Shown here: positions 53-56,852 of the stretch, piece by piece
Numbering within the stretch: position 1 is the first letter of the stretch
Layout of the letters: each line of letters opens with the position of its first letter
Assembly: GCF_003018255.1 (NCBI RefSeq)
Contig: NZ_CP027440.1
Strand: one strand, 5' to 3'
DNA length: 64,000 nucleotides
Origin: Escherichia coli
Lineage (GTDB): Bacteria; Pseudomonadota; Gammaproteobacteria; Enterobacterales; Enterobacteriaceae
Program-made: the position numbers and the translations under genes
The notes under the pieces: generated by a model
Databases searched by the model: none
Seen by the model: only the letters and a program-made list of their open reading frames with translations
What the model was told of the DNA's origin: nothing

Positions 53-126
53 TGGAGCGGGCGAAGGGAATCGAACCCTCGTATAGAGCTTGGGAAGCTC
101 TCGTTCTACCATTGAACTACGCCCGC
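53..126 (-). tRNA. glyU: tRNA-Gly (anticodon CCC)
   Basis: Reverse complement reads GCGGGCGTAGTTCAATGGTAGAACGAGAGCTTCCCAAGCTCTATACGAGGGTTCGATTCCCTTCGCCCGCTCCA: acceptor stem pairs, T-arm GGTTCGATTCC, anticodon loop CTTCCCAAG, encoded CCA. Confidence 0.9.
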
Positions 127-3680: not shown

Positions 3681-4559
3681 ATGTTTGATTTTGCTTCTTA
3701 CCATCGCGCAGCAACCCTTGCCGATGCCATCAACCTGCTGGCTGACAACCCGCAGGCCAAACTGCTCGCCGGTGGCACTGACGTACTGATTCAGCTCCAC
3801 CATCACAATGACCGTTATCGCCATATTGTTGATATTCATAATCTGGCGGAGCTGCGGGGAATTACGCTGGCGGAAGATGGCTCACTACGTATCGGCTCTG
3901 CAACGACATTTACCCAGCTCATTGAAGATCCTGTAACTCAACGTCATCTCCCGGCGTTATGTGCTGCGGCCTCATCCATTGCCGGACCGCAGATCCGTAA
4001 CGTCGCTACCTACGGTGGAAATATTTGCAACGGTGCCACCAGCGCAGATTCTGCCACGCCAACGCTAATTTATGACGCGAAACTGGAGATCCACTCCCCG
4101 CGCGGTGTTCGTTTCGTCCCGATTAATGGCTTTCACACCGGGCCGGGCAAAGTGTCTCTTGAGCATGACGAAATCCTTGTCGCCTTTCATTTTCCGCCCC
4201 AGCCGAAAGAACACGCGGGCAGCGCGCATTTTAAATATGCCATGCGCGACGCAATGGATATTTCAACGATTGGCTGCGCCGCACATTGCCAACTGGATAA
4301 CGGCAATTTCAGCGAATTACGCCTGGCATTTGGTGTTGCCGCGCCAACGCCAATTCGCTGCCAACATGCCGAACAGACTGCACAAAATGCGCCATTAAAC
4401 CTGCAAACGCTGGAAGCCATCAGCGAATCAGTCCTGCAAGATGTCGCCCCGCGTTCGTCATGGCGGGCCAGTAAAGAGTTTCGTCTGCATCTCATCCAGA
4501 CGATGACCAAAAAAGTGATTAGCGAAGCCGTCGCCGCGGCGGGGGGAAAATTGCAATGA
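3681..4559 (+). CDS. xdhB: xanthine dehydrogenase, FAD-binding subunit
   Basis: 292 aa ORF directly downstream of xdhA; CO dehydrogenase flavoprotein-like; stop overlaps xdhC start (ATGA). Confidence 0.9.
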
Positions 4560-34542: not shown

Positions 34543-36060
34543 TTATTTCACCGGACGCATCGCCGGGAACAGAATAACGTCGCGGATGGTATGACTGTTG
34601 GTGAACAGCATTACCATACGGTCGATACCAATTCCCAGACCTGCTGTCGGCGGTAAGCCGTGTTCCAGTGCGGTGACGTAATCTTCGTCGTAGAACATCG
34701 CTTCGTCGTCACCTGCATCTTTCGCGGCAACCTGATCCAGGAAGCGCTGCGCCTGATCTTCCGCGTCATTCAGCTCGCTAAAGCCGTTACCGATTTCACG
34801 CCCACCAATGAAGAACTCAAAGCGGTCTGTGATTTCCGGGTTAACGTCGTTACGACGCGCCAGAGGAGAAACTTCTGCCGGATATTCAGTAATGAAGGTC
34901 GGCTGGATCAGATGTGCTTCTGCCACTTCTTCGAAGATCTCGGTAACGATACGGCCCAGACCCCAGCTCTTCTCAACGTGGATGCCGATAGATTCAGCAA
35001 TCGCTTTCGCAGAGTCGAAGTTGTCCAGATCCGCCATGTCGGTTTCCGGGCGATATTTCTTGATCGCTTCACGCATGGTCAGTTTTTCGAACGGTTTACC
35101 GAAGTCCAGCGTTACGTCGCCGTAGGTCACTTCCGTCTTACCGAGAATATCCTGTGCCAGAGTACGGAACAGCGATTCGGTCAGCTCGATCAGATCTTTG
35201 TAATCTGCGTAAGCCATATAGAGTTCCATCATGGTGAACTCTGGGTTATGACGTACGGAAATACCTTCGTTACGGAAGTTACGGTTGATTTCGAATACAC
35301 GCTCGAAGCCACCGACCACCAGACGCTTGAGGTACAGTTCCGGCGCGATACGCAGGTACATGTCGAGATCCAGCGCATTATGGTGGGTGATGAACGGACG
35401 CGCAGCGGCACCGCCAGGGATCACCTGCATCATCGGCGTTTCAACTTCCATAAAGCCGCGGTTCACCATGAACTGGCGAATACCAGAGAGGATCTGCGAG
35501 CGCACTTTAAAGGTGTTGCGGGATTCATCGTTAGAGATGAGATCCAGATAACGCTGACGATAGCGCGCTTCCTGATCCTGCAAGCCGTGGAATTTATCCG
35601 GCAGCGGACGCAGTGCTTTGGTCAGCAGACGCAGCTCGGTACAGTGGATAGACAGTTCGCCGGTTTTGGTTTTGAACAGTTTACCTTTCGCGCCGAGGAT
35701 ATCGCCGAGGTCCCATTTTTTGAACTGCTCGTTGTAAACGCCTTCCGGCAGATCGTCACGGGCAACGTACAGCTGAATGCGGCCCCCCACGTCCTGCAGG
35801 GTAACGAAAGACGCTTTACCCATAATACGACGGGTCATCATGCGGCCGGCAACGGCGACTTCGATGTTCAGCGCTTCCAGTTCTTCGTTCTCTTTACCGT
35901 CGAATTCTGCGTGCAATTGGTCAGAGGTATGATCGCGACGGAAATCGTTCGGGAAGGCAATCCCCTGCTCGCGCAGGTTCGCCAGCTTCTCACGACGCGT
36001 TTTCAGTTCATTGTTAAGATCGACTACCGCGTCAGCGCCCTGTGCGTGTTGTTCAGACAT
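34543..36060 (-). CDS. lysS: lysyl-tRNA synthetase (class II)
   Basis: 505 aa; class II aaRS. Confidence 0.95.
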
Positions 36061-36069
36061 GTTGGTTCC

Positions 36070-37168
36070 TCATAACCCTGCTTTCAAACTTGCTTCGATA
36101 AATTGATCCAGGCTGCCGTCCAGCACGGCCTGCGTGTTACGGGTTTCTACCCCGGTACGCAGATCTTTAATGCGGGAGTCATCAAGGACATAAGAACGAA
36201 TCTGGCTGCCCCAGCCGATGTCGGATTTGTTATCTTCCATCGCCTGCTTCTCGGCATTTTTCTTCTGCATCTCCAGTTCATAAAGCTTCGCTTTCATCTG
36301 CTTCATGGCCTGGTCTTTGTTCTTGTGCTGGGAACGGTCGTTCTGGCACTGGGTCACGATCCCAGTTGGGATGTGAGTAATACGCACCGCAGATTCGGTA
36401 CGGTTAACGTGCTGACCGCCCGCGCCGGACGCGCGATAAACGTCAATGCGCAGATCCGCCGGGTTGATTTCGATATCAATATCATCATCAACTTCCGGGT
36501 AAACAAACGCAGAGCTGAACGACGTGTGGCGACGACCGCCGGAGTCAAACGGGCTCTTACGCACCAGGCGGTGAACGCCAGTTTCTGTACGCAGCCAGCC
36601 GTAAGCGTAATCGCCGGAGATTTTGATCGTCACGGATTTAATACCCGCCACTTCACCTTCCGACTCTTCGATGATTTCAGTTTTGAAACCACGCGATTCT
36701 GCCCAGCGCAGATACATACGCTCAAGCATGCTCGCCCAGTCCTGTGCTTCCGTACCGCCAGACCCCGCCTGAATATCGAGGTAGCAGTCGGCGCTGTCAT
36801 ATTCGCCAGAGAACATACGGCGGAACTCAAGCTGCGCCAGTTTTTCTTCCAGAGCGTCGAGTTCAGCAACGGCTTCGTTAAAGGTTTCTTCGTCGTCAGC
36901 TTCTACAGCCAGTTCCAGCAGACCAGAAACATCTTCCAGCCCCTGTTTCATTTGGTCGAGGGTATCGACAACGGCTTCGAGAGAGGAACGCTCTTTACCC
37001 AGCGCCTGTGCGCGTTCGGGTTCGTTCCAGACATCCGGCTGTTCCAGCTCGGCGTTTACTTCTTCCAGACGCTCTTTCTTGGCGTCATAGTCAAAGATAC
37101 CCCCTAAGAACGTCGGAGCGTTCCGTGAGGTCCTGAATGCGATTATTTACCGGATTAATTTCAAACAT
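36070..37168 (-). CDS. prfB: peptide chain release factor 2 (requires programmed +1 ribosomal frameshift)
   Basis: Frame 0 reads [25 protein letters not shown] then in-frame TGA at the CTT TGA C shift site; +1 frame continues DYDA... into the 293-aa track ORF; total 365 codons. Confidence 0.95.
37088..37106 (-). other. prfB +1 frameshift site with internal Shine-Dalgarno-like element
   Basis: Minus strand reads AGGGGGTATCTTTGAC: SD-like AGGGGG three nt upstream of the CTT-TGA-C slippery/stop context. Confidence 0.9.
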
Positions 37169-37258
37169 GGTCTGATTTCTTTTATTGAGCTAGTCAAAAT
37201 GCGGTGATAAGAGCGGGATTGTACCCAATCCACGCTCTTTTTTATAGAGAAGATGACG

Positions 37259-38992
37259 CTAAATTGGCCAGATATTGTCGATGATAATTTGCAGGCTGCG
37301 GTTGCCGCGAAACTCGTTGATATCGAGCTTGTAAGCCAGTTGCACTTCGCGCACGCCGTTATCCGGCCAGAGGGCGGTATCGACATTAAAAGCAATACCA
37401 TCCAGCAGCGGACCGCCGCCGACCGGCTCGACCATGACTTTCAAATGACGCTCGCCCACCAGCCGCTGTTGCAGCAGACGGAAATGACCGTCAAACAGCG
37501 GCTCCGGGAACATCTGCCCCCACGGGCCAGCATCGCGCAGCAGCTGCGCCACTTCCATAGTCATTTCGGCCGGGCTTAACGGACCGTCTGACACCACTTC
37601 GCCTTGCAATAGTGAAGGATCCAGCCACTCGGTAACCAGCTCGCCAAACCGTTGTTGAAAGAGTTCGAATTTATCCTCTTCCAGCGACAAACCCGCCGCC
37701 ATCGCATGGCCGCCAAACTTGAGCATCATGCCGGGGTAGAGTGTGTCTAATCGCTCCAGCGCATCACGCATATGCAGCCCCTGAATGGAGCGACCGGAAC
37801 CTTTCAGCGTACCGTCACCTGCTGGCGCAAACGCGATAACCGGACGGTGAAAACGCTCTTTGATGCGCGAAGCCAGAATACCGACAACGCCCTGATGCCA
37901 TTCGGGGTGGTACATTGCCAGCCCGCCGGGTAACGTGTCGCGGCTGCGCTCCAGTTTCTCGCACAGGGTCAGGGCTTCAATCTGCATTCCTTGTTCGATC
38001 TCTTTTCGCGTCTGGTTTAGCGCATCGAGTTCATTTGCCAGCACGCGCGCTTCGCCGATGTTGTCGCACAGCAACAGCGCCACACCGACGGACATATCGT
38101 CCAGTCGCCCGGCAGCATTGAGACGTGGCCCCAGCGCAAAACCTAAATCGCTGGCGGCGAGTTTTAGTGCATCACGGTTTGCCACTTCCAGCAGCGCTTT
38201 AATCCCTGGACGGCACTTTCCGGCACGGATGCGACTCATCCCCTGCCAGGTGAGGATGCGGTTATTGGCGTCCAGCGGCACGACGTCCGCCACTGTCCCC
38301 AACGCTACCAGATCCAGCAGTTCTGCCAGGTTAGGAATTGCGACGCCGCGCTCATCAAACCAGCCCTGATCGCGCAAAAAGGTGCGCAGCGCCAGCATCA
38401 GATAAAACGCCACACCCACGCCTGCCAGTGATTTCGACGGAAAATTACAGTCGCGCAAGTTAGGGTTAATGATCGCTTCCGCCGCGGGTAATGTTTCGCC
38501 CGGCAAATGGTGATCGGTAACAATAACCGGAATGCCCAACGAGCGAGCGTGTTCAACGCCCGAATGGGAGGAAATACCGTTATCCACCGTGACAATTAAC
38601 TGCGCGCCACGGGCATGGGCCTGATCGACCACTTCCGGGCTTAAGCCGTAACCGTCTTCGAAACGGTTTGGAACCAGGTAGTCGATATTGCTGCAACCAA
38701 GCGAGCGCATCGCCAGCACGCTTAGAGCCGTGCTGGTCGCACCGTCGGCGTCGAAATCACCGACCACAATAATCCGCGTTCCTTCGCGAAAAGCGTTGTA
38801 AAGGATCTCAACGGCCTTTTCGACGCCGCTCAGTTGCTGCCAGGGCAGCATGCCTTTAACACTGCGTTCCAGTTCCTGCGCGCTACGCACACCCCGGCTG
38901 GCATATAAACGGCGCAGCAAGGGAGGCAATTCAGCGGGCAAGTCGGCCGTTTCATCGACTTCTCGGCGACGAAGTTGTATCTGTTGTTTCAC
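37259..38992 (-). CDS. recJ: single-stranded-DNA-specific 5'-3' exonuclease RecJ
   Basis: 577 aa; DHH phosphoesterase motifs (DFDADGATS, VTDHHLPG). Confidence 0.95.
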   Translation of the reverse strand: MKQQIQLRRREVDETADLPAELPPLLRRLYASRGVRSAQELERSVKGMLPWQQLSGVEKAVEILYNAFREGTRIIVVGDFDADGATSTALSVLAMRSLGCSNIDYLVPNRFEDGYGLSPEVVDQAHARGAQLIVTVDNGISSHSGVEHARSLGIPVIVTDHHLPGETLPAAEAIINPNLRDCNFPSKSLAGVGVAFYLMLALRTFLRDQGWFDERGVAIPNLAELLDLVALGTVADVVPLDANNRILTWQGMSRIRAGKCRPGIKALLEVANRDALKLAASDLGFALGPRLNAAGRLDDMSVGVALLLCDNIGEARVLANELDALNQTRKEIEQGMQIEALTLCEKLERSRDTLPGGLAMYHPEWHQGVVGILASRIKERFHRPVIAFAPAGDGTLKGSGRSIQGLHMRDALERLDTLYPGMMLKFGGHAMAAGLSLEEDKFELFQQRFGELVTEWLDPSLLQGEVVSDGPLSPAEMTMEVAQLLRDAGPWGQMFPEPLFDGHFRLLQQRLVGERHLKVMVEPVGGGPLLDGIAFNVDTALWPDNGVREVQLAYKLDINEFRGNRSLQIIIDNIWPI

Positions 38993-55847: not shown

Positions 55848-56031
55848 ATTTCTCTGAGATGTTCGCAAGCGGGCCAGTCCCCTGAGCCGATATTTCATAC
55901 CACAAGAATGTGGCGCTCCGCGGTTGGTGAGCATGCTCGGTCCGTCCGAGAAGCCTTAAAACTGCGACGACACATTCACCTTGAACCAAGGGTTCAAGGG
56001 TTACAGCCTGCGGCGGCATCTCGGAGATTCC
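55848..56031 (+). ncRNA. ssrS: 6S RNA (RNA polymerase sigma-70 holoenzyme regulator)
   Basis: Matches my recollection of E. coli 6S RNA from ATTTCTCTGAGATGTTCGCAAGCGGGCCAG... to ...CATCTCGGAGATTCCCT; lies between zapA and fau; 3' end approximate to a few nt. Confidence 0.85.
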
Positions 56032-56654: not shown

Positions 56655-56713
56655 GGGCGACACACCTGCATCGCCCTGATTGACATCGTTGATTCTTTAA
56701 CCTAATTTAGTGA

Positions 56714-56852
56714 GTAAGGGTAAGGGAGGATGACTCCTCCCCTGAGACTGACTGTTAATAAGCTGGGAAACTTATGAGTAACAGTACAATCAGTATGATG
56801 ACAAGTCGCATCATAACCCTTCTCCTTCAAGCCCTCGCTTCGGTGAGGGCTT
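56714..56852 (+). ncRNA. sibC: SibC antisense sRNA (type I antitoxin), approximate ends
   Basis: Fully overlaps ibsC on the opposite strand; candidate -35 TTGACA (56680-56685) and -10 TAATTT (56702-56707); 3' hairpin GCCCTC-gcttcggtg-AGGGCTTT at 56829-56852; length about 139 nt fits Sib RNAs. Confidence 0.55.
56754..56813 (-). CDS. ibsC: Ibs-family type I toxin, 19-aa hydrophobic peptide
   Basis: Minus-strand ORF ATGATGCGACTTGTCATCATACTGATTGTACTGTTACTCATAAGTTTCCCAGCTTATTAA = MMRLVIILIVLLLISFPAY; below the ORF-track size cutoff. Confidence 0.7.

Follow-up and report, generated by a model that had tools for sequence, protein, structure and literature searches.

The canonical autoregulatory +1 frameshift site of prfB in an Escherichia coli genome: anatomy, joined product and conservation

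The prfB locus and its surroundings

The window analysed in this work, a stretch of 64,000 nucleotides from the E. coli contig NZ_CP027440.1 (assembly GCF_003018255.1), is ordinary core genome that leads from glyU through xdh, ygf, prfB-lysS and gcv to scpA, and the whole of it is collinear with the genome of E. coli DETEC-S792 at 99.03% identity. A tRNA-Gly(CCC) gene (53..126, minus strand), 6S RNA (ssrS; 55848..56031, plus strand) and a Sib antitoxin sRNA (56680..56830, plus strand), the latter lying opposite the annotated ibsC type I toxin gene, are also present, all of them expected E. coli features. The subject of this report is the frameshift site of prfB, the gene of release factor 2 (RF2), which is carried by the minus strand; positions 37270..36040 are, therefore, read below as the reverse complement. 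In RefSeq, a 1.3-kb locus that is 100% identical to that of the window is found in DETEC-S792, where the CDS of prfB is given in two pieces, labelled "programmed frameshift", and the gene has recJ as its upstream and lysS as its downstream neighbour.

In the window, lysS (34543..36060, minus strand, assigned from the list of open reading frames, the sequence and the RefSeq annotation) follows the stop codon of prfB after a gap of 9 nt. The GAGGA Shine-Dalgarno-like sequence of lysS overlaps the stop codon TGA of prfB (36072..36070; the region concerned is 36058..36072, minus strand), an arrangement that suggests that the two genes may be tightly co-expressed or translationally coupled. On the other side, the spacer between recJ and prfB contains a GC-rich hairpin (GAGCGTGGATTGGGTACAATCCCGCTC in the minus-strand reading, 37205..37245). 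This hairpin is scored as a terminator on the plus strand alone (37216..37231, followed by ACGCTCTTTT), that is, antisense to recJ and prfB, while, seen from the gene strand, it stands after the recJ stop codon and has a poor T-run. Additionally, a consensus scan for promoters and terminators over 36000..37600 returned no more hits than in shuffled sequences, with no convincing prfB promoter among them.

Reading frames and anatomy of the frameshift site

The start codon of prfB (ATG, 37166..37168, minus strand), which is shared with the RefSeq prfB CDS of the identical locus, opens a run of 25 sense codons (ORF0, 37094..37168) whose translation is identical to residues 1-25 of the E. coli RF2 of known structure, and which appears in the list of open reading frames as a 25-aa ORF (37091..37168). 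From the start codon to the shift site and slightly beyond, the sequence reads ATG TTT GAA ATT AAT CCG GTA AAT AAT CGC ATT CAG GAC CTC ACG GAA CGC TCC GAC GTT CTT AGG GGG TAT CTT TGA C TAT GAC GCC. Codons Arg22 and Gly23 form an internal Shine-Dalgarno-like AGGGGG (37100..37105), which is separated from CTT, codon 25 (Leu25; 37094..37096), by a spacer of three nucleotides, TAT (Tyr24; 37097..37099), this being the E-site codon when CTT is held in the P site. Translation in the 0 frame stops after Leu25, at an in-frame TGA (codon 26; 37091..37093) that is specific to RF2 and would act as the sensor of its level. The first T of this stop completes the slippery run CTT-T (37093..37096), whose role has been described previously (PMC12421855, PMC10798248), and the stop is followed by C (37090), which produces UGAC, a weak termination context known to be a conserved feature of these sites (PMC12421855).

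In the +1 frame, ORF1 (36070..37092, minus strand) extends from GAC (Asp26) to Leu365 over 340 codons, without interruption, and closes with ...SLKAGL and a TGA stop (36072..36070); its residues, 26-365, match those of the RF2 structure 1gqe. This frame is open from 37146, and the first ATG, GTG or TTG found in it is the ATG at 36951, which corresponds to Met73 of RF2. Because the +1 frame offers no start codon before Met73, a mechanical ORF finder reports just 293 amino acids (36070..36951, minus strand), that is, residues 73-365, a part of ORF1. The remainder of RF2 is encoded in the +1 frame alone; the 0 frame stops within 2 codons and the +2 frame within 11. In fact, after the regulatory stop, the 0 frame reads TGA-CTA-TGA and continues into sequence that is unrelated to RF2.

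An earlier sequence-only reading of this DNA had described 25 codons that end at an in-frame UGA inside CTT-TGA-C, as well as an AGGGGG placed three nucleotides upstream of CTT, and both descriptions hold to the nucleotide (AGGGGG at 37105..37100, a spacer that is exactly TAT, TGA at 37093..37091 as codon 26 and C at 37090). It had also attributed to the frameshift the fact that only a 293-aa ORF is listed, which agrees with the start of this ORF at Met73 in the +1 frame. The same reading gave no strand, which is the minus one, and its range, 37088..37168, goes 3 nt beyond the stop, which is harmless.

Motif rarity, pairing with 16S rRNA and downstream sequence

When both strands of the 64-kb window are searched with at most one mismatch, a single occurrence of the composite motif AGGGGGNNNCTTTGAC is found, against a chance expectation of 0.06 and one or more matches in 6 of 100 dinucleotide shuffles; the parts of the motif are, singly, common in the window (ten occurrences each of CTTTGAC and AGGGGG). 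The AGGGGG element, which is the hyper-conserved consensus of the prfB frameshift cassette (PMC12421855), forms the strongest anti-Shine-Dalgarno duplex of the whole prfB mRNA (−11.7 kcal/mol for the 10-mer, −11.7 to −12.6 kcal/mol overall), and its 10-mer ranks in the top 0.11% of all the 10-mers of the window for such pairing. For this calculation, the anti-Shine-Dalgarno tail of E. coli 16S rRNA was taken from established knowledge, as rrs lies outside the window.

Folding of the 84 nt downstream of the stop gave −19.2 kcal/mol, which is no better than in shuffled sequences (z = −0.67), so that no stimulatory structure was detected in this segment. Likewise, no Rfam family was found on the frameshift site when the whole window was searched at the gathering threshold. 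Both absences are consistent with the known mechanism, which is independent of structure. A more permissive search (E ≤ 10) of 36950..37300 returned six weak matches (E from 2.3 to 8.9, 10-19 bits, far under the gathering threshold), which we attribute to chance and which fall mostly in the recJ-prfB spacer; all the weak chance matches cluster on the hairpin described above.

Identity of the joined product

Joining Leu25 directly to Asp26 produces a protein of 365 amino acids. This protein matches the NCBIfam model TIGR00020 (prfB) with 525.9 bits, well over the curated cutoff of 370, its residues 12-362 covering positions 2-353 of the 353 in the model, while the models of RF1 give only 304-306 bits, which is under their own cutoffs. 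The sequence-only reading had pointed to an alignment with RF2 as the way of checking its proposal. When this alignment was made with the crystal structure of E. coli RF2 (1gqe, chain 1gqe_A), residues 1-365 aligned with residues 1-365, gapless over L25/D26 (E = 8.1e-241), and 364 of the 365 positions were identical; many ribosome-bound RF2 chains also align with the joined protein. As the alignment with 1gqe has no gap, the junction is exactly as proposed. Additionally, the joined protein contains the tripeptide involved in stop codon recognition, SPF, at residues 205-207 and the peptidyl-hydrolysis motif GGQ at residues 250-252. Together with the two-piece CDS annotated by RefSeq on the identical locus and the agreement of the cassette with that of K-12 MG1655 (see below), these results bear out the earlier attribution of the site to the autoregulatory frameshift of RF2.

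Comparison with E. coli K-12

The site of the window and that of prfB in K-12 (b2891) are base-for-base the same in the leader, ORF0, AGGGGG, the TAT spacer and CTT-TGA-C. They also have in common the position of the site at codon 26, the recJ-prfB-lysS neighbourhood and the annotation as a joined CDS, and their proteins agree at 364 of 365 residues. In the 221 nt that include the shift cassette, ORF0 and the recJ-prfB spacer, the window departs from K-12 MG1655 at a single, synonymous position, in the codon for Tyr27. Along the whole gene (1,099 nt) there are 16 nucleotide differences, 15 of which are synonymous in the joined frame, the remaining one being a replacement at residue 246 (A246/T246). 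Such a bias toward synonymous changes indicates that the joined reading frame is under purifying selection.

Two of these differences lie at Tyr27 and at residue 246. Tyr27 is encoded by TAT in the window and by TAC in K-12, and the former creates a second TGA in the 0 frame (37087..37085, minus strand; the site as a whole is 37085..37090), located two codons after the regulatory UGA. About one-fifth of the sampled E. coli genomes match the window at 100% identity in the 131 nt around the site and presumably share TAT; across species, among the matches listed in the scan described below, TAT is found in 16 cases and TAC in 27. Residue 246 of RF2 (36430..36432, minus strand) is Ala (GCG) in the window and Thr (ACG) in K-12 MG1655. 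It has been reported that, K-12 apart, all bacteria have the canonical Ala or Ser at this position, and that the Thr246 protein of K-12 is methylation-dependent and less active than the Ala form (PMC5373646).

Conservation in E. coli

The prfB locus is present in a single copy in 5,425 of 5,426 complete E. coli genomes. Of the 5,425 genomes with a match, 5,398 carry the 131-nt segment that surrounds the site with an identity of at least 99%, and a 35-nt core (37124..37090) is 100% identical, in one copy each, in 5,416 of the 5,426. As for the exceptions, one genome has no match to the prfB locus, another has a match on a record labelled as a plasmid, and about eight have no match to the 35-nt core.

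Two genomes of serotype O157:H7, SS17 (NZ_CP008805.1, 3830554-3830604) and SS52 (NZ_CP010304.1, 3793977-3794027), have CTTGAC, with one T fewer than CTTTGAC, so that their prfB is contiguous and in frame. In both of them, the annotated CDS of prfB is unjoined and bears the same protein accession, and they are the only two of the 5,426 genomes in such a state. Either an artefact, of a homopolymer or of curation, or a genuine loss of RF2 autoregulation could account for this. If the loss were real, the frameshift would be dispensable in at least some E. coli backgrounds.

Conservation across bacteria

In a scan of species-representative genomes with the plain pattern AGGGGGNNTCTTTGAC, at least 120 stretches were matched. 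For 106 of the 120 matches listed, the +1 frame that opens at GAC encodes a homologue of RF2 (phmmer E from 1e-7 to 1e-226), and in most of these loci, which number at least 106, the site is found 20-26 codons after an in-frame ATG. The matches listed include Bacillota, Fusobacteriota, Bacteroidota, Gemmatimonadota, Myxococcota and Desulfobacterota, in addition to Alpha-, Beta- and Gammaproteobacteria, and TAT is the commonest spacer among them (62 of the 106 sites confirmed as RF2). Concerning the 14 matches listed that were not confirmed, four end with the locus (9-271 nt downstream) and about nine, one of them from an archaeon, look like chance. A further case, at 3947-3962 (plus strand) of match L038, belongs to a Bacteroidetes metagenome-assembled genome (MAG; JAJTCJ010000035.1) and has a prfB-like cassette 20 codons after an ATG (...TTAAGGGGGCATCTTTGACATCGAC), followed by a +1 ORF of just 69 amino acids with no RF2 match; it could be an assembly error of the MAG or a disrupted gene. 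On these figures, the motif appears to be close to diagnostic for prfB, a statement about its specificity and not about its prevalence among prfB genes, because the probe was the motif itself.

As regards prevalence, the frameshift cassette has been found in 64% of 12,753 genomes surveyed (PMC12421855). The cassettes of other bacteria share the plan of the one described here, with AGGGGG, 3 nt, CTTT, GA and C at about codons 20-26 (Baranov et al. 2002; PMC12421855). Although other lineages use different spacer codons (TCT, TTT, CAT) and ORF0 lengths, there is no difference in kind. By contrast, the in-frame prfB genes known from Thermotogota and from about one-third of bacteria (PMC12421855), to which the SS17 and SS52 records may be added, encode the same RF2 protein without an internal stop and, hence, without the feedback loop, whereas prfB in the window has the stop.

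Weighing of the alternatives

Other explanations of an RF2 gene divided in this manner have to be considered. The TGA could be a sequencing or assembly error, or an inactivating mutation, which would make of prfB either a contiguous ORF or a pseudogene, and it is true that the contiguous state, CTTGAC, exists in the records of SS17 and SS52. However, RF2 is an essential translation factor, the 35-nt cassette is shared, without change, by K-12 and by 5,416 of 5,426 independent complete genomes, the cassette recurs at the same codon of RF2 genes across phyla, and 15 of the 16 substitutions with respect to K-12 are synonymous in the joined frame. Invariance across genomes and phyla and the synonymous pattern effectively refute this explanation. 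A second possibility starts from the leakiness of UGA-C as a stop context (PMC12421855): ribosomes might remain in the 0 frame at the UGA, through readthrough or selenocysteine insertion, with no bypass into the +1 frame. This would lead, two codons later, to the second stop of TGA-CTA-TGA and, after it, to non-RF2 sequence, while the +1 frame alone gives RF2 and the solved structures match over the junction with no extra residue; moreover, the downstream structure is not significant (z = −0.67) and there is no Rfam match at the site. Decoding in the 0 frame is excluded by the second stop and by the presence of Leu25 directly before Asp26 in the solved protein.

The two remaining explanations, also very improbable, deal with the origin of the product and with the level at which the frame is restored. 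According to the former, the functional protein would be the 293-aa ORF initiated at the internal ATG (36951, Met73), which is, indeed, the sole ORF with a start codon reported in the +1 frame by the mechanical finder, and ORF0 would be an unrelated leader peptide. Nevertheless, residues 1-25 from ORF0 and residues 26-72 from the +1 frame are identical to the N-terminal domain of the solved full-length RF2, the prfB family model covers the protein from residue 12, the +1 frame stays open before Met73 and is conserved there, and just upstream of the ATG at 36951 (CTCGACCAA) there is no Shine-Dalgarno-like element. According to the latter, the frame would be restored in the RNA and not by the ribosome, through slippage of the transcription machinery at the short homopolymers of the site, GGGGG and TTT. 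Productive slippage by RNA polymerase is known from runs longer than these 3-5 nt, which makes this explanation implausible, while the conserved RF2-specific stop, the 3-nt Shine-Dalgarno spacing and the C at +4 fit the ribosomal mechanism (PMC12421855). It is also contradicted by the experiments cited in PMC12421855 (its references 12, 14, 18 and 19), which, according to this source, demonstrated ribosomal frameshifting on the identical K-12 sequence both in vitro and in vivo.

Mechanism and significance

We consider it nearly certain (a probability of about 97%) that the feature in the window is E. coli prfB with its canonical autoregulatory +1 programmed ribosomal frameshift. The grounds for this are the exact anatomy of the site, the identity of the joined product, the identity of the site with that of K-12, and its conservation in E. 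coli and across phyla, and none of the data speak against it. The frameshifting itself, its efficiency and its dependence on RF2 are what we infer from the literature on the identical K-12 sequence. For the mechanism we follow PMC12421855 and PMC10798248; the primary work cited there includes Craigen et al. 1985, Craigen and Caskey 1986 and Weiss et al. 1987 and 1988 (cited in PMC12421855), as well as Marquez et al. 2004 and Devaraj and Fredrick 2010 (cited in PMC12421855/PMC10798248).

In this mechanism, ribosomes would initiate at the ATG at 37168, read 25 codons and then pause, CUU (Leu25) occupying the P site and UGA the A site, where the C after UGA would make a poor termination signal. 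If RF2 were plentiful, the UGA would be read and a short, unstable peptide of 25 residues would be released. If RF2 were scarce, AGGGGG would pair with the anti-Shine-Dalgarno tail of 16S rRNA, and the very short spacing would strain or destabilise the pairing in the P and E sites, as in the "compressed spring" model of the frameshift (PMC10798248). The peptidyl-tRNA-Leu would then slip from CUU to UUU, GAC (Asp26) would enter the A site, and translation through the 340 codons that remain would produce the full-length, 365-aa RF2. In E. coli, the efficiency of the frameshift is about 40-60%, also given as about 50% (PMC10798248). As the abundance of RF2 would decide between termination and frameshift, RF2 would set the rate of its own synthesis through negative feedback.

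The set-point of this feedback in the window might differ from that of K-12 as a result of the Ala246 form of RF2 and the tandem UGA derived from TAT, although we regard this as rather unlikely. If it were so, the more active Ala246 protein would lead to more termination and less shifting per RF2 molecule on the same cassette, and the tandem UGA in the 0 frame could back-stop near-cognate readthrough. Both Ala246 and TAT are polymorphisms that are common in nature, and whatever effect they had would be no more than quantitative.

The canonical frameshift of prfB is, in any case, already known, and its presence is ordinary and expected in an E. coli genome. It matters for annotation alone, since a simple ORF finder shortens RF2 to 293 amino acids or splits the gene in two; therefore, the CDS of prfB in the window is best given as the join of 37168..37094 and 37092..36070 (minus strand), flagged with ribosomal slippage. 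The study of programmed +1 frameshifting was founded on this example, known since 1985-86.
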